A stretch of 64,000 nucleotides of DNA. It comes from a virus. The stretch lies in the IMG/VR virus record IMGVR_UViG_3300047323_000675. One strand, 5' to 3'. Each line of letters begins with the position of its first letter. Positions within the stretch are counted from its first letter, which is position 1. The notes below the pieces were generated by a model. That model was not told where the DNA came from and did no database searches. It saw only the letters and a program-made list of their open reading frames with translations. The position numbers were made by a program, and so were the translations under genes. Positions 24,507-39,017 of this stretch are shown here, in pieces.

Positions 24507-24553
24507 AATTTTTAACTTTACTTTTTTCCTATTTCTAATATGATAGCTCCAAT

Positions 24554-25639
24554 TTGGAGAGTATTTTGGATTTATCAAAACCATTAATTATCAATACAGA
24601 GCTTTTTTTGCAATGTCATGGGCATTGTTCAGGATGTTTTTTAACTGAAATAGAAAGAATGGAAGAAAATACTCATTTAAACAAAATTCGCAAACCAATA
24701 TTAGATTTATTAAGTAAAGAAGATAATTATACTCATGTCATATTAGGTTTTGGTAGAGGTAATTTACTTAATTTAGCTGAGAAAAGCCTCAATGATTTAT
24801 TAAGCCTAATGCAAGATTGTGAATCATTAGTTTCTAAAGATAAAATAACATATGAGGTTTCCTCATCTTTAATTGGTAAGATTGATAGTCAAATAGAAAA
24901 AGCTGCTTTCCTACTTAATAAAAATAAAAATATTTACTTCAATGTTGTTATTAATTCTGAGATTACTTCAAATAATTTTTGGACTAATTGGGAAAAATTT
25001 TATGATGCGAATTCCAATATAAGAAAATCATGGGGAATGTCTGATAACTTTTCAGATATTTTGGTTTTAAACATAAATCCTCAAATATTACCTGATTTAA
25101 ACTTTATAGAAAAATATGTAGCTCATCATGGTTCGCCATTCAATATTAGCTTATTTCCATTTAGTAGTAATGAAATTTCTAATGATGACTTATTGGCTTT
25201 AAACAATTGGTCAATTAAATTGTGGAATAAGTTTAAGCATAAAGACTTAAATATTAAAAATTATTTAGAATCATTAAATAAAGTAGATATTGGAAGTGAT
25301 TTAGTAGATATTATAAGTTATCATGAAAGTAATAAAAATGCTTATTATTTTGTAGATAAAAATGGGGAAGTTACACCAGGCTCGTTATCTATAATGGGTG
25401 AAGTAGATTATGTGAGATTAGTAAATAAATTTAGCACAAATCCAGATCCAAAAAATGCTTTAATGCTTATGCAAAAAACAAAGCCTTGCAATATGTGTGA
25501 ATACCAAAAGGAATGCTTATTAAGTGGTGCTTATTTAAATATGGTAAACAATTCAAAAAAAATAAAAACTGCAAAACATTGTTTGAGTGGTTATGCACCA
25601 ATTTTTGAATTGTCAGCTAATTCACATATTTCTTCATAA
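24554..25639 (+). CDS. Divergent radical SAM protein with C-terminal SPASM/Twitch-like Cys motif
   Basis: CHGHCSGC (CxxxCxxC) near N-terminus; CNMCEYQKEC...C near C-terminus; TTG start. Confidence 0.7.
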   Translation: MESILDLSKPLIINTELFLQCHGHCSGCFLTEIERMEENTHLNKIRKPILDLLSKEDNYTHVILGFGRGNLLNLAEKSLNDLLSLMQDCESLVSKDKITYEVSSSLIGKIDSQIEKAAFLLNKNKNIYFNVVINSEITSNNFWTNWEKFYDANSNIRKSWGMSDNFSDILVLNINPQILPDLNFIEKYVAHHGSPFNISLFPFSSNEISNDDLLALNNWSIKLWNKFKHKDLNIKNYLESLNKVDIGSDLVDIISYHESNKNAYYFVDKNGEVTPGSLSIMGEVDYVRLVNKFSTNPDPKNALMLMQKTKPCNMCEYQKECLLSGAYLNMVNNSKKIKTAKHCLSGYAPIFELSANSHISS

Positions 25640-26826
25640 TGCTTAAAAAGCTGTTTAGCAACATGAAGACATTCTAGCTCCTTAATATTCTTTTTAATTG
25701 CTAATGCAATATTAATATCTTTTTTAGCTGCTTGATTAAGAACATAATTATAGATGTGAAAACCACTATTTGCACAATATTTATTATATTCACAACTATT
25801 GCATGGTTCTTTAATAAATTGTTTAGTAACATTTTTCTTAGTTTCTACCAAATGTTTAGAAAACATTTCTTTAATACTTAATTGTTCAACTACATTTCCA
25901 ATTGCATCAAAACCTAACCTTGGAGTATGTGCTATATCGCCAATTGCTTCATATTTTGGAAATATGTTTCCTTTATCATCAATTTGAATACTTTTATGAA
26001 CTAACTCTGGCAAATTATATTCAAGATTTTCTTGGAAAGATAATTCTTGTTCAGGCATTTTGCATTTTAAATTATTAATAGTTTTGATAATAACTGGTCT
26101 ATAACTAGTATCTAAATTTTTACTTTCTGCAATTAACTCATCAAATTTTAAAAGCCATGAAGCCAATTTTTTTTGATTCATATAAACATATTGAAGATTA
26201 TCAAATGTAGGAGTCCAATTAATTGTTACTTCATCAAATTCATTTTGTAATGCAAAACTAAATAATTCGTCAGGAGTAATTGCATTAATTGCTTCTTCAC
26301 TTAAATTAATTGCTAAGTCGACTTTACCTATTAATTTATTAGTTTCAATTATATTTTTTTTATAAACTTCCGCAAATTTTTTATGATATAAATGTTTAGG
26401 ATCTAATACTGCAATAATATAAAAAGGTATGCCTCTTTTTTGACTCAAATCATACATAAATTTAACTTTATCCATGATTACTTCATGTTTGCCAATCATA
26501 CTTGCACTATAGAATATTCCATTATACGGATTAGAAAGATTTGCGGACTCTATTAGGCTTGCACCTAAATCATAGGTATTTGCTAAATAATCTTTAGACA
26601 TTAAGAAATGATCAGCAATACCATAAGTTAAATTAATTTTTTCTAAATTCTTTAGTGTTGGAATATATTCTTTAAGTTTATTAATAGCATGAATCATTGT
26701 TGTTGGTGCCATGTCTGCATTATCAGATTTCCTTTCTAAAGAAGAAAGTGTGCAGCCTGGGCAATGACCAGGACACCCATAAACATCATCTATTTCTATT
26801 TGAATTTCATTGCTATATTGAGACAT
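25591..26826 (-). CDS. Divergent radical SAM protein with C-terminal SPASM/Twitch-like Cys motif
   Basis: CPGHCPGC; CNSCEYNKYC...C; ATG 26826 follows upstream TAA with GGAG RBS. Confidence 0.72.
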   Translation of the reverse strand: MSQYSNEIQIEIDDVYGCPGHCPGCTLSSLERKSDNADMAPTTMIHAINKLKEYIPTLKNLEKINLTYGIADHFLMSKDYLANTYDLGASLIESANLSNPYNGIFYSASMIGKHEVIMDKVKFMYDLSQKRGIPFYIIAVLDPKHLYHKKFAEVYKKNIIETNKLIGKVDLAINLSEEAINAITPDELFSFALQNEFDEVTINWTPTFDNLQYVYMNQKKLASWLLKFDELIAESKNLDTSYRPVIIKTINNLKCKMPEQELSFQENLEYNLPELVHKSIQIDDKGNIFPKYEAIGDIAHTPRLGFDAIGNVVEQLSIKEMFSKHLVETKKNVTKQFIKEPCNSCEYNKYCANSGFHIYNYVLNQAAKKDINIALAIKKNIKELECLHVAKQLFKHYEEICELADNSKIGA

Positions 26827-26827
26827 A

Positions 26828-28132
26828 TTAAAACTCCAATCTCTTAAATCCATCAATCATATTTTGTAAAAATACACGATCTTTTTGGAACTCTCTAATA
26901 ACTGGTAAGTAACCATAACAATCTTTTCCATCATCTTCTTGGAATTTTCTAAAAAATGGAATAGCATGAGAAGCACAAAAACTTTTATATTTACATCCAG
27001 CACATTTTTTATGTTTCATTAAATGTAAAATATTTTGATGGAGCATTTTCTCTAATACACCATTAGGGTCTGTAACTATCTCATGAATTGGTGTTTCAAC
27101 GATATTCCCTAGTTTTGGAAAACCAAAGTTATTATCTAGTACATGTTGTCCCATAGATTCAGACCATAAATATAAATCCAAATTATGGTCAATATAAAGA
27201 CTAGTTAAGAAAATATCACGAGTTTTATCTTTAATGATACGGATATCAAAAGGCTCTTCCGGAATTTCATTTTCAATAAAATCAAAGTCTATACTTCCAT
27301 CTGGTCTAATAGCTTGATATTCTTTATATTCATCAAGTAATGTTACTGCGTATTCTGCAATAGGAATTGGATGAATATTAAGCTTATATTGTAAAATCCA
27401 ATGAGCAACTCCAGTTAACCATTGAACTTCTTGGTCAACTGATACAACTTGCTTCATATTAAAGTTTCTAGTCTTTGATGGAGTATAACGACCAAATTGC
27501 ATTTGTGTTTCAATAAATCCTAATGGGGCAACACATTCATCAACAAACTTTTTTGGATCACTAAATTTATCTAGTAATCTTTTTGTAATTAAAACTTCAG
27601 GATATCCAAGAATTCCATGATTACGCATTTCTAAAATCATGTCTTTAAGTTGATAAGGATTATCAACTATAGGGTCATAAATAATTTCTAAAAAAATTCT
27701 ACTACCATTAGGATTATTTTCAGGTTTAGTTAATTCGTAAAATTTTGAAATATCATCAGTTGGTGCTGTTGAGAAAACTTTAAATTCAGCATTCATTGTT
27801 TGGCTTATATCCAATAAGATCTCTAAAGGAAGTTCACTATGATTTCCAAATCTGAAAGTATAGCTAAAATGATTAACTTTAAAACCATTTTTACCAAAAT
27901 ATCCGGTTTCTTTAGTGTTTAAATTTTGCTGAATCCATGCATAATATTCCTGAACTCTAGTGTGAATAAGTTGCATCTGTTCATTAGACAAAATAGGCTG
28001 TAATCTCTTATTTTTGAAATAAGTATCAACTAGGCAGCCAGGACAACCTTTACCGCAACCATCATAACTATGAATTGCTATTTGTAAATCATCCATAACA
28101 CCTAATGTACTATTTGTTCTTTCAAAAATCAT
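26828..28132 (-). CDS. Divergent radical SAM protein with C-terminal SPASM/Twitch-like Cys motif
   Basis: CGKGCPGC; CAGCKYKSFC...C; AGGA RBS before ATG 28132 (track start 28222 overlaps the divergent gene). Confidence 0.72.
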   Translation of the reverse strand: MIFERTNSTLGVMDDLQIAIHSYDGCGKGCPGCLVDTYFKNKRLQPILSNEQMQLIHTRVQEYYAWIQQNLNTKETGYFGKNGFKVNHFSYTFRFGNHSELPLEILLDISQTMNAEFKVFSTAPTDDISKFYELTKPENNPNGSRIFLEIIYDPIVDNPYQLKDMILEMRNHGILGYPEVLITKRLLDKFSDPKKFVDECVAPLGFIETQMQFGRYTPSKTRNFNMKQVVSVDQEVQWLTGVAHWILQYKLNIHPIPIAEYAVTLLDEYKEYQAIRPDGSIDFDFIENEIPEEPFDIRIIKDKTRDIFLTSLYIDHNLDLYLWSESMGQHVLDNNFGFPKLGNIVETPIHEIVTDPNGVLEKMLHQNILHLMKHKKCAGCKYKSFCASHAIPFFRKFQEDDGKDCYGYLPVIREFQKDRVFLQNMIDGFKRLEF

Positions 28133-28196
28133 AAATTTCCTAACTTGTGTTTTTATCAGTTCTTTTATATATTGTTTTAAGAAAAAAAGCAAATTA

Positions 28197-28991
28197 ATGA
28201 TTATGGAAAAAATTATATACAAATGGATTGAAACGCTTATTAATAATGGGGATATACCGTTAGAAATAATTGATGATAACTTTACTATTGAAGATGGTAT
28301 GAATTTAGAACAATATTGGGAGTATGAAAAATCAAATTTTAATCAATATGCAGAGAATTGTAGACTTAAAGAAGGTTTTAATATTTCAATTGTTAATGCT
28401 CAAAAATTAAATGCCAACAAGAATATTGTCTCTTTTTATGTAAAAAATAATTTAGGAAAAATTATTTTCAAAATGAATTTGACAATTTTAAATAATAGTA
28501 AAATTTCATCAAATAATTATTATTCCCATATCGTCCCCAAATTTGTAATTGAAAAAAATAAAATAATAAAATTAGGTTTAGCAATTAAATCACCAAAAGA
28601 AATAGAGAATATAATTTCTAGTGATTTAGAATTAATTAGCTTTGATAAAAGTTCTAGTTTTAACGAAGATGGTTTTTATACTGCTCAATTTGAAATTGAA
28701 GATGAAATACAAAATAAAGTATTCAATTTTTATATAAAAATGGGTGAAATAAAGGAGAAAAGAACTATATTCTTTGATAATTTTGATTTATCTCTTTGTC
28801 CTTATATTCTAGGTGATTGGACAATGATAACTAAAGATGATGCTTATCCAGTTAATCTTGCAGTTTATTACATAAATGGATTGATTAAAAATGTTGCTTA
28901 TCCAATAGCAGAATTAGAAGGATTATATGGAGTTAAAAAGATTATTGTTACTGATTCATTAGATAATGATTGGATAATAAATGTAAAATAA
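28197..28991 (+). CDS. Hypothetical protein, divergent from radical SAM operon
   Basis: 264-aa ORF, no motif recognised, no tail. Confidence 0.6.
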   Translation: MIMEKIIYKWIETLINNGDIPLEIIDDNFTIEDGMNLEQYWEYEKSNFNQYAENCRLKEGFNISIVNAQKLNANKNIVSFYVKNNLGKIIFKMNLTILNNSKISSNNYYSHIVPKFVIEKNKIIKLGLAIKSPKEIENIISSDLELISFDKSSSFNEDGFYTAQFEIEDEIQNKVFNFYIKMGEIKEKRTIFFDNFDLSLCPYILGDWTMITKDDAYPVNLAVYYINGLIKNVAYPIAELEGLYGVKKIIVTDSLDNDWIINVK

Positions 28992-29062: not shown

Positions 29063-29482
29063 ATGGATAAAGATAACTGGATAGAAAATTACGAAAAAAA
29101 TTCGGATATTATTGAAAAATCTTTAAAAGAGAATAAAGATTTTACTTGTTCTGCATTTTTCTCTTTAGGTTTGGCTAGTATAGGAGCAGCCGTTACAATT
29201 TCTTCTAATTCTGAGCCATTATTAGCTAGTGGTATTGCAGCAGTATTAACTGGATTAGTAATGGGTGGTTATTTTTTTATGAGTAAAGAAAAGAATAAAG
29301 AAATAATTGATACTAAGATGATAGTGCTTGAGAAAATTTATAATTTAATGCCAGAAAAAGATAAAGATTTATTAAACCAAAAAATTCAATCAAAACAAAA
29401 AACAATTGAAAAAATCAAGTTATTACGCGAAACAACAATTGTAAGAGAGGATGGAATCACTAATCCTTTTGCCATTAGATAA
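29063..29482 (+). CDS. Hypothetical membrane protein (2 TM)
   Basis: Two hydrophobic helices; AAGG RBS. Confidence 0.65.
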   Translation: MDKDNWIENYEKNSDIIEKSLKENKDFTCSAFFSLGLASIGAAVTISSNSEPLLASGIAAVLTGLVMGGYFFMSKEKNKEIIDTKMIVLEKIYNLMPEKDKDLLNQKIQSKQKTIEKIKLLRETTIVREDGITNPFAIR

Positions 29483-29491
29483 AGGAATTAT

Positions 29492-29911
29492 ATGCAAATT
29501 ACTGAATTAGTGAATATGTATGAAACTACTGAAAGTAATACTAGAGAAGCCAATCAAAAATATTCTTTTTATAAACATGCTTGTTTTTTATCTGTTGGAT
29601 TGGCTGTTGGTAGTATCGCAGTATATAATCTTACAAATGGACATTATAATAATATAAATGATGCTAGTATTTTGACATTCATAGCTGGTTCTTTATCCAC
29701 CTTATATCTGAAGATGACTAAAGATATGTATAAAAGCCTACTAGATAGTAGAACAGAGACATTAGCCAAATTATGTCAATTAATGACTCCTGAAGATGTA
29801 GCAACTGTTAAGATAAGAAGATTAGAGATGGAAAACTTAAAAGAAGAAATGAAATTAAGTGATAAAAATTTTTTGAAATCTAATAAGAAATTAAAAAAGA
29901 TTAAGCCATGA
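29492..29911 (+). CDS. Hypothetical membrane protein (2 TM), Lys-rich C-terminus
   Basis: Similar layout to 29063; ends KKLKKIKP; ATGA overlap with next gene. Confidence 0.65.
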   Translation: MQITELVNMYETTESNTREANQKYSFYKHACFLSVGLAVGSIAVYNLTNGHYNNINDASILTFIAGSLSTLYLKMTKDMYKSLLDSRTETLAKLCQLMTPEDVATVKIRRLEMENLKEEMKLSDKNFLKSNKKLKKIKP

Positions 29912-30489
29912 TGACTTTGTATGAAAAATATAAAAATGCATCTTTGGATGATCTTAATAAAGATTTAGTAAATGCTTGTATTGAAGGAGAATTAGAAATT
30001 GTTCAGTATTTATTATCCTCAACGGACTTAAAACAACATGCTGATATTAATGATGAAGACTGTTTGGCTTTCTGCTTTGCTTGTTCTACAGGTAACTTAG
30101 ATATTGTAAAATACATGCTAACTTCTCCAGAATTAAAAATTCATGTGAATATTAATGCTAAAGAAGGAGAGCCTTTAAGTTGGGCTTGTGAAAATGGTCA
30201 ATTAGAGGTAGTAAAATATTTACTTAGTTCATCAGACTTAAAAGAACATGCAAATCTTCATATAAATAATGACAATCCTTTTGCTGCTGCTCATATGAAT
30301 TATCACGATGATATTACAAATTTTTTAATCTTTGGTTGTAATATTGAGAGAAACAATAATATCAGAAGGATTCTTGCTGAAAAACCTGATGAACAAATAG
30401 ACTCTTGGTTTAAGTTAAGAGATTTAAATAAAGAATTAAACTCGGATTTAATTAATCACGAATCTAATTTAAAAAAACCTAAATTATAG
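29908..30489 (+). CDS. Ankyrin-repeat protein with tail
   Basis: GELEIVQYLLSS repeats; tail LKKPKL. Confidence 0.85.
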   Translation: MMTLYEKYKNASLDDLNKDLVNACIEGELEIVQYLLSSTDLKQHADINDEDCLAFCFACSTGNLDIVKYMLTSPELKIHVNINAKEGEPLSWACENGQLEVVKYLLSSSDLKEHANLHINNDNPFAAAHMNYHDDITNFLIFGCNIERNNNIRRILAEKPDEQIDSWFKLRDLNKELNSDLINHESNLKKPKL

Positions 30490-30490
30490 T

Positions 30491-30712
30491 TCATTTTACT
30501 TTTTTAGAAAATTCAGCAATAGCATTATATTGTTTAGCAGAAAGCTTTAAAAATTTTTTAATGAGCTCTTTATCTTTAGAATAATACTCCTGTGCAAAAT
30601 CAAAATTGTCTGGAAGCAAGTTTAAATCAGTTGCTTTCGCCCATTGGACAAAATTAACTAAACTTTTTTCCATGCTTTCTCGTAAGCCCAAGTCAACTTT
30701 ACTGATATCCAT
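30491..30712 (-). CDS. Small hypothetical protein (73 aa)
   Basis: GGAG RBS, clean ORF convergent on the ankyrin gene. Confidence 0.55.
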   Translation of the reverse strand: MDISKVDLGLRESMEKSLVNFVQWAKATDLNLLPDNFDFAQEYYSKDKELIKKFLKLSAKQYNAIAEFSKKVK

Positions 30713-30831
30713 GTTTTCTCCATGTAAGGTTGATATCCATCATATCACACCTAGAGGTTTATTCCAATTGAATAATTAGTATAACATGTTAATATTAACA
30801 AGAGTCAATTGAAAATACAATAAATAAAAAT

Positions 30832-31320
30832 ATGGATAAAGATGAATTAGAGAAAATCAATAATTTCACAAATACTGAAATGGTTCAGTATCTTGAACAT
30901 TACTGTTATGTTGGCAATTTTGAAGCAGTTAAATATATGCTAACATCTCCAAACATTAAAAATCCTTTAAATCTTTATATTTGTGGTGATAATGCAATTT
31001 TTCAAGCTTGTAAGAATGGACATTTAAATATAGTTCAATATTTAACATCCTCTCCTGAATTATCTAATCATGTTGCATATTCTGATAAGATTGATAAAGG
31101 ATTTATTGGGGCATGCGAAAAATGGCACTTAGATGTAATTAAATATTTAATTTTTGATTATAAAATTGAATTTTCTAGTGAAATTTATGAATATCTTGGA
31201 GATAGTCTAATGAATGATGAAATAGAAGAAATGTTTTATGTCCGAAGTCTGCATGATGATATTGATAAAGACTTATCTATAAATACAAAAGATAAAGTAG
31301 TTAAGAAAATAAAAATATAA
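30832..31320 (+). CDS. Ankyrin-repeat protein with tail
   Basis: ACKNGHLNIVQYLTSSPE; tail VKKIKI. Confidence 0.8.
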   Translation: MDKDELEKINNFTNTEMVQYLEHYCYVGNFEAVKYMLTSPNIKNPLNLYICGDNAIFQACKNGHLNIVQYLTSSPELSNHVAYSDKIDKGFIGACEKWHLDVIKYLIFDYKIEFSSEIYEYLGDSLMNDEIEEMFYVRSLHDDIDKDLSINTKDKVVKKIKI

Positions 31321-32439
31321 TTATTTAATTAAGCTATAAATATCACACTCACTATAATCTTCAATTAGCATATTTTTCTTAAATAATTCAGAACTTAATC
31401 CAGAAGGAACAACCTGAATGCATCTTGAATTAAGTGGACAACCTTGGCAAACATCTAATAAAAAATGGTTCTTTTTTTCTATCTTTTTATCAGAATAAAC
31501 TTTATCTTGATTATAAGTAGATTCTTTTAAATAAGTAGGTAAAAGGAAGTTTAAATTAGATTCAAAATATTTTGGATTAATCATTTTATTTTTATAATAT
31601 CCAATAAGTTCATTAATTGAATCAACTTTAGTAAAATCTAATTTTTCATATTTTTTCTGATAATTCTCTATAAATGGAAGAGGTGGCATTATTTTGGATG
31701 ATAAGTCAGACTCATTTTCATAGAAATAGCCACTCAAATAAATACCTTTTTGCCCTACAATAATGTGTTTTTCTTCGATTTCAGGGATTTCATGTTCATA
31801 TGAACATTGAACACCAATATATTCAAAATCGTTTATATATTTTTTAAAATCAAAAACTTCACCAGCTTTAATATTGTAGTATTGCTCAGAATAATTTCCA
31901 TTACTATCACCTAAATGTAAAGTTAATGGACAATCTTTTTTTGATATTAGTTGATGCTTATTAATTATTTCACTGTAATGTTCAGTTTTATAGCGATTAT
32001 AAATGTCAGAAAGTTTTCCAACATAAGAAGAAGAAATAAGTTTTAAATTACCATTGTTTTTTTCGTAAAACAAGACATTGCAAGGCTTGTTGAGAGAACA
32101 CAGTAATTCACTATCTATTTGAAAACAAATATGATAATTATTGTCATCTTCAACAAGTGGATCTTCATGCGAATTAGGTGTAACTATTCTAAATTTATAC
32201 AAATCTATATATATATCTTTTGAATATATCTCATTATTATTTTCATCTACTAAAGAAAAATAATAAGCTTTGTTGCCTATTAGCTCCTTTGGGACTCCAA
32301 ATTGCACCATAAAAAAATGAAAAAAAGAAATACCTTCTTGGAAGAATCTAAATCCTTTTTCTACAGAAAAAATTACATTACTCATGATTTCAAGACTTTT
32401 ATTTGAAAAAAGCTTATATCGTTTAAAGATAAAAGGCAA
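31321..32439 (-). CDS. Hypothetical protein with C-terminal SPASM-like Cys motif, no SAM motif
   Basis: CQGCPLNSRC...EC at C-terminus; no CxxxCxxC; start uncertain (TTG 32439 or ATG 32385). Confidence 0.6.
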   Translation of the reverse strand: MPFIFKRYKLFSNKSLEIMSNVIFSVEKGFRFFQEGISFFHFFMVQFGVPKELIGNKAYYFSLVDENNNEIYSKDIYIDLYKFRIVTPNSHEDPLVEDDNNYHICFQIDSELLCSLNKPCNVLFYEKNNGNLKLISSSYVGKLSDIYNRYKTEHYSEIINKHQLISKKDCPLTLHLGDSNGNYSEQYYNIKAGEVFDFKKYINDFEYIGVQCSYEHEIPEIEEKHIIVGQKGIYLSGYFYENESDLSSKIMPPLPFIENYQKKYEKLDFTKVDSINELIGYYKNKMINPKYFESNLNFLLPTYLKESTYNQDKVYSDKKIEKKNHFLLDVCQGCPLNSRCIQVVPSGLSSELFKKNMLIEDYSECDIYSLIK

Positions 32440-32502: not shown

Positions 32503-33252
32503 ATGTTATTACAAGATTTATTTAAGGAAGAAAACAAAAATTTGAAATCAGCTTATTCCATTACATTAAATGATGAGTCATCTTCTGTAGAATATTCAAC
32601 TCCTCCATTAAATTTAGAAGAGATTGGTTTTATATTTCGGGTTAATGAAGAAGGTGAAATAGAAGAAAATTTATTAGATGTAATTATTAATTGTGGCTTA
32701 AAGAATTTACCTACTTTAGTTGAAGTTCCTAGCCAATTAATTTCCGAAGAAAAAGTTTCAGTAAAATATTTGATTCAAATGGCAAGTAATATTGGATTTT
32801 TCTTAGCATTTCTTCCGCCAGGTCATGAAGAAGTAGGAAACTTAATTACTATCTCGCAATACAAAGATGTAGTTATGCAAGTTACCGAAGAGATGCTAAA
32901 AAGACCTAATTTTGATAAGTTTGTTTATCCTGTTTCAAATTATTTTGAGTACTTAATGTTAGAACAAATTTTAGGCAAAGATAAGCTTGTAAATTTTAGA
33001 CCTGAAAGTGAATATATCAAAGATAATTTTTCTAATTTAATGACAAGTAAGGATAGTGACGATTTTAAATTATCTATTCGTAATCGTTTATATGATTTTT
33101 ATGGTGGAGAAAATGAATTTAATTTAGTTGCTCAAACTATTTTAGATGGTGTTTATGAAAAAAGTAAGGAAATATTTACAGATATAGTTGAGCATTCTCT
33201 TCCGGAACAAGAGGGAAATAATATTAATGAATTAAACAATGAAAATAAATAA
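32503..33252 (+). CDS. Acidic hypothetical protein
   Basis: 249-aa ORF with AAGGA RBS, own promoter and terminator; no tail. Confidence 0.65.
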   Translation: MLLQDLFKEENKNLKSAYSITLNDESSSVEYSTPPLNLEEIGFIFRVNEEGEIEENLLDVIINCGLKNLPTLVEVPSQLISEEKVSVKYLIQMASNIGFFLAFLPPGHEEVGNLITISQYKDVVMQVTEEMLKRPNFDKFVYPVSNYFEYLMLEQILGKDKLVNFRPESEYIKDNFSNLMTSKDSDDFKLSIRNRLYDFYGGENEFNLVAQTILDGVYEKSKEIFTDIVEHSLPEQEGNNINELNNENK

Positions 33253-33341: not shown

Positions 33342-34382
33342 ATGAAAAAAGATATACTAAGCAAATTAAGTGCTGAAACATTTAGCCAAATGGCTGCTAA
33401 TGGGGATATTTCTGATAACTTTTCAAAAGGTTTAACAGATAAATTCTTAAGTTTAGGTGTTACAACTGTTTTAGCTGGAATGATGTTTCTTTCTAGCGGA
33501 GTTGCACATGCTGATGATGTAAGAACTGGTGCAATTACTTTAAGCGGTTTATTTGGATTAATGTCTAATAATACAAAACCAAAAGATATTCCTTCGGATT
33601 GCTATGTGCAAGGAACAAGTGGAATGAAAACTGGTGGTGCTGGTGCTGTTGGTGGTTGGTTGGGTAGTAAAGTAGGCGATGGCAATGGTCAAAAAGTTGC
33701 AACTATTGCTGGAGCAATTATTGGTGTTACTGCTGCTCAGACTAGCGAAAACGATAGAATGAGAAGAGAGTGTTCTGAGCAAATGGCTTATAACAAAAAA
33801 GTTAATGGTATCCCAATGTATGCCACTAATAATAGTTCTCCACAATCACCTATTCTATATGAAGGCAGAACTGTAAATGGAAGAAGCTTTTATGTAACTA
33901 TGCAAGATAGCCCAGGTATTGCCGGATTATCTGGAAGAGTTGCTGGTGGTGCTAGTGTAGATAATGACCCAATTGTAAGAAATGCAATGGAAAAAGGTTC
34001 TGAATTATTAGCTATGTCTTATAAAAATTTAGAAAAACAAGCACAAGTATATAATAAAGTAATGAGTGGTAGAACCACTGTAGCAAAATTAACTAGATAT
34101 GCTGTAGATACAAATGATGTTGGAGCCAATTCTGAATTAAATAGGAATAACCAAGCAATGCTTGCTCAAGCTAAAAGAGAATTTGATATGGCTTATAGCG
34201 AATATTCAAGAAGGAGATCAGTATTTGCAAATGTAGCAGATAATGCAGTTGTAGATGGATTTGATATTTCTAGATATAGGGATTCATTAGAGTATTTTGT
34301 ACCGCCAGATTCAGCAACTATGACTTATAATGGTAGATTAAGTAATAGTTATGCCGTAATTCCTGCTCCTGCAAGACCATAA
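33342..34382 (+). CDS. Glycine-zipper 2TM domain protein, probably exported
   Basis: GAGAVGGWLGSKVGDGNGQKVATIAGAIIG; signal-like segment ending AHA/DD. Confidence 0.7.
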   Translation: MKKDILSKLSAETFSQMAANGDISDNFSKGLTDKFLSLGVTTVLAGMMFLSSGVAHADDVRTGAITLSGLFGLMSNNTKPKDIPSDCYVQGTSGMKTGGAGAVGGWLGSKVGDGNGQKVATIAGAIIGVTAAQTSENDRMRRECSEQMAYNKKVNGIPMYATNNSSPQSPILYEGRTVNGRSFYVTMQDSPGIAGLSGRVAGGASVDNDPIVRNAMEKGSELLAMSYKNLEKQAQVYNKVMSGRTTVAKLTRYAVDTNDVGANSELNRNNQAMLAQAKREFDMAYSEYSRRRSVFANVADNAVVDGFDISRYRDSLEYFVPPDSATMTYNGRLSNSYAVIPAPARP

Positions 34383-34394
34383 TTTATATAAAAG

Positions 34395-34424
34395 AAAGCC
34401 CTCACATGAGGGCTTTTATTTTTT
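34395..34424. terminator. Bidirectional intrinsic terminator
   Basis: AAAGCCCTCA-ca-TGAGGGCTTT. Confidence 0.85.
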
Positions 34425-34619
34425 CTGAACCGCATTAAAAACATTAATATTGATTGGCTTATTACAAATCTTACAATCAATTTGTTTAGGGTTATAGCAA
34501 TTATTTTCTTTATCATATGCGATAGTCACACTCATCCTTAAAAGGCAGTGTGGACACATAATAGGAAAACAATTAAATTTAGATGATCGTAGTTTATAAT
34601 AAGTTTCTATATGATTCAT
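34416..34619 (-). CDS. Small zinc-ribbon-like protein
   Basis: CPHC...CKIC in 67 aa. Confidence 0.5.
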   Translation of the reverse strand: MNHIETYYKLRSSKFNCFPIMCPHCLLRMSVTIAYDKENNCYNPKQIDCKICNKPININVFNAVQKK

Positions 34620-34783
34620 GTTTTGAATTAATTATGTTTTCGACAATATTAATATTTTATCTAAAAACCGAAATTATTGCAACAACTTATTAATATATTA
34701 AAACTTAATACACCATTAAATAATTTAAGCTTGACTTTAATTTATCTCTGTTATAAATTTCTTTTTAACAACTAGGTTAAAAT

Positions 34784-35254
34784 ATGCAAAATACAAATCT
34801 TGAAAATTTAATTGATGGAATAAATCATATAAGTTTAAATCACGAGGATTTATTAGATACAGTATTAGACTTTGCTAGTTTATATAGCAAACAAAATCCA
34901 AATGAAGCAACAGTAATAGATAGATTTTTCGTTTACGGGACATTTATTGACCAATCTGTAATCGCAGCAAGAGAAGCGATAGTTTTAGCAATGAATGCAA
35001 TTACTTTAAATGAACAAATAGATTTTGAAGATGTTATTAAGGGTTGTGTAAATCTTACCAATCAAAGACAAGCTGAAGATGATATTTGTGCTGATGATGA
35101 TACAAAAATTGCAATGCAACAGTTCCTTAAAGAACTAAGAAAAGAATTATTCAGCCGCTTATATTCACAAAATAAAGATTTTGACCGTTATTCCAAAATT
35201 AGTAAATCTGTTCTCAAACACCGATTTGATTTGTTTATGAATCAAACATTTTAA
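34784..35254 (+). CDS. Hypothetical protein
   Basis: 156-aa ORF with AGG RBS and an upstream TTGACT promoter-like site. Confidence 0.6.
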   Translation: MQNTNLENLIDGINHISLNHEDLLDTVLDFASLYSKQNPNEATVIDRFFVYGTFIDQSVIAAREAIVLAMNAITLNEQIDFEDVIKGCVNLTNQRQAEDDICADDDTKIAMQQFLKELRKELFSRLYSQNKDFDRYSKISKSVLKHRFDLFMNQTF

Positions 35255-36949: not shown

Positions 36950-37906
36950 ATGAAGCAATTAAAAAAACAAAAACATCAATTAGTAATTTTAGGTAGTGGT
37001 CCTGCTGGTTGGACTGCTGCAATCTATGCTGCTCGTGCAGGATTAAAGCCTGTTGTTATTTCAGGATTTTCAAAAGGTGGTCAGTTAATGACTACTACCG
37101 ATGTTGAAAATTGGCCAGGAGAAAAAGCTGTAGAGGGACCAGAACTAATTTCTAATTTAGAAGCACATGCGGTTCACTTTGGAACCCAACTCATTGAAGA
37201 TCATATTGATAGAGTAGATTTTTCAAAAAAACCATTTAAGTTATTTAGTCATGAAGCTGAATATGAATGTGATGCAGTTATTATATGTACAGGTGCTAAT
37301 GCAAAATATCTTGGTTTAGATAGTGAACAAGAGTTTTTAGGTCGTGGTGTATCAGGATGTGCTACTTGTGATGGTTTCTTCTATCGTAATGATGAAGTAG
37401 CTGTTGTAGGTGGAGGTAATACTGCGGTTGAGGAAGCAATTTATTTATCTAACATTGCGTCTAAAGTACATTTAGTTCATAGGAGAGATACATTTAAAGC
37501 GGAAAAAATTATGATTGATCGCCTACAAAGAAGAATTGATCAAGGCCTTGTTGAACTACACTTAGATAGTGAAGTAAATGAAGTTAAAGGTGATGAGACA
37601 GGTGTTACATCGTTAGAGATTAAAAATACAAAAAGTGGCGACACTAAGGATATTCCATTAAGAGGTGTATTTATTGCTATTGGTCATTCACCTAACACTT
37701 TAATTTTTAAAGGTCATTTAGAATTAGATAAAAATGGTTATATTCTAACTAAAAAAGCATCTAACCATGTTACTCAAACAAGTATTCGTGGAGTATTTGC
37801 TGCTGGTGATGTTCAAGACAATATCTATCGTCAAGCAATTACGAGTGCTGGTGCAGGTTGCCAGGCAGCATTAGATGCAATTGAATACTTAGAAGGATTA
37901 AATTGA
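36950..37906 (+). CDS. trxB: Thioredoxin-disulfide reductase
   Basis: [29 protein letters not shown] (CxxC), [19 protein letters not shown]. Confidence 0.95.
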
Positions 37907-37922
37907 TTAATCTATAAAATAT

Positions 37923-37954
37923 AAAAAGCTCAGAATTTACTGGGCTTTTTTTTT
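37923..37954 (+). terminator. Intrinsic terminator
   Basis: AAAAAGCTCAG-aattta-CTGGGCTTTTT plus T tract. Confidence 0.8.
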
Positions 37955-37999
37955 AAATTTAATTTGTTAAAATATAAGTACACTATTTGGGAATTAAAA

Positions 38000-38488
38000 A
38001 TGGAATATAAATTGGAAGATCTATCTATTCATCCTAAAATATTAGCAGAGAATAAATATAATAAATTTAATGATAGCACTAAAAGATATAACGAAGAATA
38101 TATGGAGTCATGGCAAAAAACCATTTATAACGATTATGGAAAAGCTTATTTCATAAATTTTAATTTTTATAATATGACTCATATTTATTCGCAACATAAG
38201 ATAAAAGGAAATCCATATTCTTGGGAAGCCGATTTACAGTTTAATTCACTTGATAATGATATGACAGTAAATATCAAAGTTTTTGGAACTCATCGTAATT
38301 TGCATTCTGTGGAAAATTTTTGTGAAAAAATGTTTAATCAAATGCAGTTTAAAAATTATGATTATTACAGTGATGAAGATGAGTATAAGCATAAAAAAGG
38401 TTTAGAAGTTATTAATGATGTAAATGAATTAGAAAAAGAACTGCCAAAATCAAATACTAAGAAAAAGAATACAAAAAGAAAAATTTAA
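38000..38488 (+). CDS. Hypothetical protein with C-terminal tail
   Basis: Ends VNELEKELPKSNTKKKNTKRKI; ATG 38000 preferred to TTG 37964. Confidence 0.65.
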   Translation: MEYKLEDLSIHPKILAENKYNKFNDSTKRYNEEYMESWQKTIYNDYGKAYFINFNFYNMTHIYSQHKIKGNPYSWEADLQFNSLDNDMTVNIKVFGTHRNLHSVENFCEKMFNQMQFKNYDYYSDEDEYKHKKGLEVINDVNELEKELPKSNTKKKNTKRKI

Positions 38489-38515
38489 AAAGGCTCCGTA
38501 AGGGGCTTTTCTTTT
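38489..38515 (+). terminator. Intrinsic terminator
   Basis: AGGCTCC-gtaa-GGGGCTT plus T tract. Confidence 0.7.
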
Positions 38516-38558
38516 ATATATATTTTAATATTCTTAACTTATATTAAAATATATACAT

Positions 38559-39017
38559 ATGAAAAATAGATTAATTATTCAAAAAACAGATTCTGATTGT
38601 GGATTAGCTTGTATTACTATGATAGCAGAATGCCCATATGAAGAAGTATTATCTAATTTTATGAAATTAGGATTATATGGGAAACATAACAAAACTCGTC
38701 CTTATGCTACTAATTTTAAAGATGTAAAAAGTATTTTATCTAGCTTAGGCTTTGAAGGAAAAGTGAAAAAATTTAAAACTTGGGATGAAATTAATTGTCC
38801 ATCAATTGTAAAAATTCCCAATGGTAGAAAACGCTCTTTTCATTGGATTGTTGCAATACCACATTCTGAGCATAAAGTAGTAATATATGATCCATGTTTT
38901 GAATTTTTAAGTTATTTTGAAAATCCGCCATTAGATGAAGCATATATTGATCCTAATAATTTTATGGGAAAATTTAAACCAAATGGTTCATTTATTGCAT
39001 GCCAAAAAATAAAATGA
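38559..39017 (+). CDS. Standalone peptidase C39-like protein
   Basis: QKTDSDCGLAC (Q..C), FHWIV (His), VIYDP (Asp); no ABC transporter domain. Confidence 0.75.
   Translation: MKNRLIIQKTDSDCGLACITMIAECPYEEVLSNFMKLGLYGKHNKTRPYATNFKDVKSILSSLGFEGKVKKFKTWDEINCPSIVKIPNGRKRSFHWIVAIPHSEHKVVIYDPCFEFLSYFENPPLDEAYIDPNNFMGKFKPNGSFIACQKIK

Follow-up and report, generated by a model that had tools for sequence, protein, structure and literature searches.

The region between positions 24,554 and 28,132 of a viral DNA stretch of 64,000 nucleotides (IMG/VR record IMGVR_UViG_3300047323_000675; the whole stretch is referred to here as the window) encodes three proteins, A, B and C. Judged from their sequences and structural models, the trio is predicted to form a new, structurally atypical branch of the radical S-adenosylmethionine (SAM)/SPASM enzymes, within an undescribed and widespread protein-modification system. 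New peptide and protein chemistry comes mainly from radical SAM/SPASM enzymes. Our best explanation, to which we assign a probability of about 0.7, is that A, B and C are three paralogues that diverged long ago within one undescribed branch of this superfamily, and that they most likely help to modify a secreted protein with a Cys-His tail, together with other radical SAM enzymes that act sequentially or in a complex. An earlier note on this DNA had suggested a multi-enzyme or sequential modification system and this is still the best reading of the trio. The note had also found no recognisable pathway around the three genes. Here the picture has changed, as synteny places them in a cluster with a secreted Cys-His-repeat precursor ending in GSRGWR, canonical radical SAM/SPASM enzymes and two further conserved proteins, D and E. 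The genes of the trio are as follows (aa, amino acids).

Gene A: 24566..25639, + strand, 357 aa from TTG 24566; predicted divergent radical SAM enzyme
Gene B: 25591..26826, - strand, 411 aa from ATG 26826; predicted divergent radical SAM enzyme
Gene C: 26828..28132, - strand, 434 aa from ATG 28132; predicted divergent radical SAM enzyme

Before refinement of the starts, the open reading frames (ORFs) extended over 24554-25639 (+, 361 aa, open from TTG 24554) for A, 25591-26856 (-, 421 aa) for B and 26828-28222 (-, 464 aa) for C.

Conserved cysteine motifs and GGEP substitutes

All three ORFs carry the two cysteine motifs that had been claimed for them, an N-terminal CxxxCxxC and a C-terminal CxxCx5C...C, and both were found to be invariant across the families. 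The N-terminal motif takes the form CxxxCxGC and reads CHGHCSGC in A (ORF residues 21-28), CPGHCPGC in B and CGKGCPGC in C. The C-terminal motif is formed by C312/C315/C321/C343 in A (ORF residues 312-343) and by C352/C355/C361/C396 in B (ORF numbering). In C it is formed by C407/C410/C416/C435 of the 464-aa ORF, which are C377/C380/C386/C405 of the 434-aa protein. The seven motif cysteines are the sole invariant cysteines of each family in alignments of 28 (A), 76 (B) and 39 (C) homologues. The invariant residues are C21/C25/C28/C312/C315/C321/C343 in the A family, C28/C32/G34/C35/D82/C352/C355/C361/C396 in the B family (ORF numbering) and C26/C30/C33/C377/C380/C386/C405 in the C family. As the cysteine pattern is invariant across the family alignments, it is therefore a conserved feature and not a chance match.

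The residue before the third cluster cysteine of radical SAM enzymes is normally aromatic. The canonical radical SAM neighbours of the trio carry tyrosine in this position, and in the trio itself glycine was observed, which is invariant in B and C and usual in A. The earlier note saw no clear GGEP motif in the three proteins and listed GFGRG, YGIAD and RFGNH in its place. These segments, which extend to GFGRGN in A, YGI[AG]DH in B and RFGNHSE in C, were indeed found to align by hhalign with one another and with the position of GGEP in a canonical radical SAM enzyme, so that this motif is replaced in the trio. The substitutes are conserved within families, as seen for D82/H83 in B and G96/H98/E100 in C.

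Homologues of all three proteins were collected. For B, a word-index search gave 101 homologues and a full search of 1.84 billion proteins gave 128 representatives at 50% identity; 109 homologues were found for A and 140 for C, the latter all at least 54% identical and 432-434 aa long. None of the collected A, B or C homologues carries a precomputed Pfam domain. C is the most conserved member of the trio, with a mean column identity of 62% over 39 sequences, and its identity across phyla is at least 54%, compared to 33-40% for B and 22-25% for A. Because C is far better conserved than B or A, this suggests that it carries out the most constrained step.

Radical SAM fold and paralogy

AlphaFold2 models were made for B and C, and A was tied to them by profile comparison. 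The mean predicted local distance difference test (pLDDT) score was 94.4 for the B model and 87.9 for the C model. In a Foldseek search with the B model every top match was a radical SAM enzyme, with ChlB and anSMEcpe in the lead. When compared by VIA-align, the B model gave a Z score of 22.5 against ChlB, with a root-mean-square deviation (rmsd) of 4.3 over 332 aligned residues, and a Z score of 22.4 against anSMEcpe; the alignments to these two enzymes cover 324-335 residues and span residues 15-418. The C model gave a Z score of 20.6 against anSMEcpe (rmsd 3.9, 316 aligned residues). The next structural matches for both models were CteB, SuiB, TigE, SkfB and PqqE. The earlier note had allowed that the proteins might not fold as radical SAM barrels. 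Against this possibility, the B and C models superpose on radical SAM enzymes and contain the (beta/alpha) TIM-barrel core of the superfamily. A C-terminal domain follows the barrel, where alignments against the whole anSMEcpe and ChlB chains reach residue 418 in B and residues 423-432 in C.

The view of the trio as paralogues was borne out by comparison of the family profiles. Comparison of the A and B families by hhalign gave a probability of 99.9 (E 1e-31, 342 columns) and that of the B and C families gave 99.5 (E 4e-22). The B profile also aligns with a canonical radical SAM/SPASM enzyme from the Thiobacillus cluster at E 4.6e-5, and the motifs CxxxCxxC, GGEP and CxxCx5C all fall in register. 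On these profiles A, B and C are homologous to one another over their full length, and the profiles and models together identify them as putative radical SAM iron-sulfur proteins that are genuine though very divergent.

The possibility that the trio maps to a characterised family was also considered, and no curated family was found to fit any of the three. Scans of A-E and their neighbours against Pfam, NCBIfam, PADLOC and PHROGs gave nothing that reaches threshold, the best Pfam score on A being Fer4_12 at 13.6 bits, below threshold. Profile searches with the B, C, D and E families detected no relatives among PDB sequences. As far as these models reach, A, B and C belong to no curated family. 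In the ESM Atlas, C lies nearest to radical SAM clusters of Pseudomonadota and phages, which we treat as a lead only.

Predicted cofactor layout of the C-terminal domain

The SPASM pattern, CX9-15GX4C...CX2CX5CX3C...C, contains seven cysteines and binds two auxiliary clusters. The trio conserves the CX2CX5C segment and one distal cysteine of this pattern and nothing more; in B, the position of the CX3C cysteine is occupied by Gly365. In the canonical radical SAM enzymes of the same gene clusters, the SPASM pattern comprises eight C-terminal cysteines, compared to four in the trio. Therefore, the earlier description of the three proteins as radical SAM/SPASM-like stands for the barrel and for the SPASM-like C-terminal domain, but not for a full SPASM domain, of which four of the usual seven or eight cysteines are present.

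Each of A, B and C would bind a SAM-cleaving [4Fe-4S] cluster through CxxxCxGC and one auxiliary [4Fe-4S] cluster through CxxCx5C and the distal cysteine. In anSMEcpe the second auxiliary cluster (Aux II) is ligated by C317/C320/C326/C348 (PMC5715301). Because the cysteine set kept in the trio equals this Aux II ligand set, we infer that the trio retains an Aux II-like cluster and has lost the first auxiliary cluster (Aux I). The twitch domain represents a shortened SPASM domain with one auxiliary cluster (PMC9012708). The trio resembles twitch enzymes such as BtrN, MoaA and SkfB in having a radical SAM core followed by a C-terminal domain with a single predicted auxiliary cluster. However, the part retained in the trio is CxxCx5C...C, which provides the Aux II ligands in anSMEcpe, and the Z scores of the B model to BtrN, MoaA and SkfB are lower (12-17.7). 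By its cysteine content the C-terminal domain of the trio would thus be neither a full SPASM nor a classical twitch domain.

A conserved gene cluster in other genomes

A total of 31 loci were compared, seven collected with the B family from species-representative genomes and 24 collected with the C family from metagenomes. The seven B-family loci come from Rhodospirillales-type metagenome-assembled genomes (MAGs), a Methylococcales MAG, a Hyphomicrobiales MAG, Pararhizobium sp. BT-229 and Thiobacillus denitrificans DSM 12475. The last two are cultured; the Thiobacillus strain carries the cluster and the Pararhizobium strain carries B alone. A C homologue is also on record for Agrobacterium rubi. 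Using hidden Markov models (HMMs) of the families, B was found in 24 of the 25 loci with a full C gene, the sole exception being just 2.3 kb long, and a clear A was found in 19 of the 25.

Another component of these clusters is a gene for a precursor protein roughly 125-190 aa long, which carries a signal peptide at its N-terminus and ends in (C[HY]xx)n-CHG[SA]RGWR. One or two such genes occur per locus. A precursor ending in GSRGWR or GARGWR was observed in 15 loci. Among these are 12 of the 15 loci in which C is flanked by 10 kb on each side. Canonical radical SAM/SPASM enzymes of the anSME/DynA type flank the precursor, with two to six per cluster. Proteobacterial clusters hold additional paralogues of the trio branch, and the number of radical-SAM-type genes per cluster ranges from five to eleven; as an example, the compact proteobacterial cluster L021 contains about eleven. 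Gene E lies directly 3' of the precursor gene in the proteobacterial clusters (Thiobacillus and allies) and overlaps it in L007 and L021. Homologues of gene D adjoin C or B in loci L006-L013, L016, L017, L019, L021 and L026. Synteny shows the trio to be dedicated components of a conserved, predicted multi-enzyme system.

The Thiobacillus denitrificans cluster (L007:11014-15204) also contains genes for a tryptophan-halogenase-like flavoprotein, an M50 peptidase, a DnaJ-domain protein and a DUF2167 protein. None of the four was seen again in any other locus.

Gene starts, partner genes and surroundings in the window

The start of C at ATG 28132 has AGGA upstream and gives a length that matches the homologues. 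The start of B at ATG 26826 lies one base past the TAA stop codon of C, and the two genes are translationally coupled. The start of A is most likely TTG 24566, because a GGAGAG site lies upstream and the gene starts of the related loci L010 and L011 fall at the same place. The ATG used by the A orthologue in L008, the closest relative, is out of frame here, with a one-base difference in the CCAAATTT run (window 24541-24566, +). A public gene call of A (326 aa) starts past the cluster motif and so omits it; this call is probably too short. A and B are convergent and their 3' ends overlap by 49 bp, an arrangement shared by L008 and L010. In one close relative (L009:6758-10631), three tandem copies of B were observed between C and A. 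The other features of the region are listed below.

Gene D: 28197..28991, + strand, conserved 264-aa protein travelling with the trio
Insertion: 29063..31320, + strand, two tandem paralogous 139-aa proteins (two predicted membrane helices each) and two ankyrin genes
372-aa protein: 31321..32439, - strand, C-terminal CxxCx5C...C without CxxxCxxC; adjoins D in close relatives
Gene E: 32503..33252, + strand, conserved 249-aa protein
Two genes: 33342..35254, + strand, a 346-aa membrane or exported protein with a glycine-zipper motif and a 156-aa protein

For D, no relative was found in Pfam, PADLOC, PHROGs or the PDB, and for E there was no family or PDB match. In close relatives (L009-L014, L016 and L026), where C is 73-85% identical, the genes form a contiguous series in the order 34784 homologue, 33342 homologue, E, 31321 homologue, D, C, B, A, precursor(s) and two canonical radical SAM genes. 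The two genes at 33342..35254 are syntenic with the cluster in low-GC relatives only.

The motif of the 372-aa protein, C331/C334/C340/C365, is invariant in nine homologues. This protein was considered as a full-length fourth paralogue and set aside, as hhalign to the B and C families aligns just 21-23 residues of the cysteine motif. It may be an iron-sulfur partner or the remnant of a fourth enzyme. The insertion at 29063-31320 is missing in L008, where about 330 bp separate the homologues of D and of the gene at 31321, and it is not part of the system. The ankyrin setting, in which the earlier note had seen the system embedded, is a secondary insertion and does not belong to the system. The stretch upstream of A holds an ankyrin gene, two small genes and the long ankyrin array, and the same is found in L008.

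A few kb from the cluster, the window also encodes a thioredoxin-reductase-type flavoprotein (36950-37906, +) and a stand-alone 152-aa C39 peptidase-like protein (38559-39017, +). No homologues of these flavoprotein and C39-like genes (36950-39017) turned up in the loci of the relatives.

Comparison with known systems

The closest solved relatives of the trio are anSMEcpe and ChlB (PDB 4k36-4k39, 9gm3 and 9gmc). Maturases of this type match members B and C over their full length (Z 20-22.5, 316-335 residues), share the N-terminal CxxxCxxC and have a SPASM motif with which the CxxCx5C of the trio aligns; in addition, both sets of genes are tied to a Cys-containing protein substrate. They differ from the trio in that identity is 12-14%, with no sequence-model match for the trio, and in that the trio has glycine for the aromatic residue, GI[AG]DH, GRGN or FGNH for GGEP, and four C-terminal cysteines (the Aux II set).

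HXS is the closest described system in logic. In HXS, a periplasmic effector with short repeats is matured by radical SAM enzymes and blocks the entry of phage DNA (PMC13128918). Like the system described here, HXS (HxsA, HxsB/HxsC and HxsD) combines a secreted protein with a short His-containing repeat, more than one radical SAM enzyme and a small accessory protein (PMC13128918). The repeat of the trio system, however, is C-H-x-x with a GSRGWR end whereas that of HXS is H-x-S, and the trio system contains five to eleven radical-SAM-type genes compared to two. Among the HXS models, the sole match was that of C to TIGR03978 (HxsB) at 14.5 bits, where the cut-off is 370, and TIGR03977 (HxsC) was unmatched.

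A related tail was noticed in phage genomes. More than 120 viral contigs (loci L033-L152) encode proteins that end in (CHxS)3 followed by a near-invariant SRGRR, often with two such proteins per locus. These cassettes resemble the bacterial clusters in two respects: Cys-His recurs at every fourth residue of a tail that closes with [GST]SRGxR-COOH, and the tail protein is accompanied by several radical SAM enzymes. They differ in that the bacterial tail ends in GWR and the bacterial protein has a signal peptide. By sequence, the phage tail appears clearly akin to the bacterial CHG[SA]RGWR tail. The A, B and C families were also sought in the phage Cys-His-tail cassettes (120 phage loci) and were not recovered there, the HMMs scoring 18-35 bits on the two cysteine motifs alone. 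A scan of viral contigs with the C family gave one weak partial match. Neither the tail nor the system was found described in the literature, which was searched for the tail motif and for phage or multi-radical-SAM systems.

Proposed mechanism and alternative explanations

We propose that, in the cytoplasm, different radical SAM enzymes would act on the Cys-His repeat tail of the precursor, either sequentially or as a complex. Such a complex would take in D, E and the canonical enzymes alongside A, B and C, each of the three being an active radical SAM enzyme with one auxiliary cluster. Hydrogen abstraction would lead to cross-links or other radical modifications at the repeated Cys/His units, where the GSRGWR end, with E and/or D, may serve as the recognition element. 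The modified protein would then be exported, presumably through Sec.

Several observations weigh against this explanation. PF04055 (Radical_SAM) gave no match to A, B or C at E <= 0.1, and the SPASM model TIGR04085 scored 18.8 bits on B and 15.9 bits on C, where the cut-off is 27, and nothing on A. Because GGEP is replaced and glycine precedes the third cluster cysteine, SAM binding and cleavage by the trio can only be inferred, and without Aux I the usual SPASM electron path is absent. In the other genomes, L018, L020 and L029 are well flanked and have C with no precursor within 10 kb, and L003 and L005 carry B alone. Finally, the 64-kb window contains no precursor and no canonical radical SAM/SPASM gene, though A-E are all present. 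Ankyrin and other genes have been inserted into the cluster, which probably places the precursor outside the window and makes the trio look orphaned here.

Alternatively, A, B and C could be degenerate, catalytically silent scaffolds or chaperones that present the tail to the canonical radical SAM/SPASM enzymes. GGEP is lost, as are the cluster motif's aromatic residue and the ligands of Aux I, no Radical_SAM model matches, and pseudo-SAM/SPASM families do exist in NCBIfam (TIGR04347). However, the three SAM-cluster cysteines are invariant in all three families (28-76 diverse sequences), the whole-length constraint on C, seen in its mean column identity, is more typical of an enzyme, and the GGEP substitutes of B and C are themselves conserved, so that we consider a silent role improbable. 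A more distant alternative is that the trio makes or modifies a small molecule, such as a cofactor, a lipid or a nucleotide, and merely shares its neighbourhood with the precursor system. Fold relatives of the trio do include DesII, BlsE, viperin and MoaA, and in this genome the trio is probably distant from the precursor. The best structural matches, however, are peptide and protein maturases (ChlB, anSMEcpe, CteB, SuiB, TigE and SkfB), synteny with the precursor spans Betaproteobacteria (Thiobacillus), Alphaproteobacteria and the low-GC lineage, and no small-molecule pathway genes are conserved beside the trio; this explanation is very unlikely. The earlier note had left a peptide, a protein or a nucleotide as the substrate. 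A nucleotide is unlikely given the gene context, and a protein is favoured by the synteny with the precursor.

Modification of the Cys-His-tailed protein would be compatible with a biological role as an HXS-type anti-phage defence system. The architecture is the same, in that a secreted protein with repeats is joined by paired radical SAM enzymes and a small partner (PMC13128918), and the related (CHxS)3...SRGRR tails that are common in phage genomes hint at a phage-host theme. Yet PADLOC models match no component, the HxsB and HxsC models stay at 14.5 bits or give no score where the cut-offs are 370 and 268, the precursors examined showed no peptidoglycan-binding domain, and the neighbouring genes are not defence genes. 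We therefore regard a defence role as unlikely. A speculative and rather doubtful extension of the modification scheme is that the trio gave up Aux I because the substrate itself provides this cluster. In this view the Cys-His tail would occupy the vacant pocket and ligate or join an iron-sulfur or other metal centre, and the five to eleven radical SAM enzymes would assemble on it either a metallocofactor bound to the protein or a metal-binding module with dense cross-links, following a NifB- or QhpD-like logic. If true, this would be a new class of protein-derived cofactor that is exported to the periplasm.

Significance

The three families are unseen by curated models and would represent a distinct branch with an unusual cofactor layout. 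In the clusters that carry them, a single short Cys-His repeat tail on a secreted protein appears to be served by five to eleven radical-SAM-type enzymes. The system spans Alpha-, Beta- and Gammaproteobacteria as well as an AT-rich lineage with many ankyrin genes, and its tail is mirrored in many phage genomes. As regards annotation, these 'hypothetical proteins', one of which was called too short by the public gene caller, are predicted iron-sulfur enzymes. Since cultured hosts exist, the chemistry of the system is directly testable.

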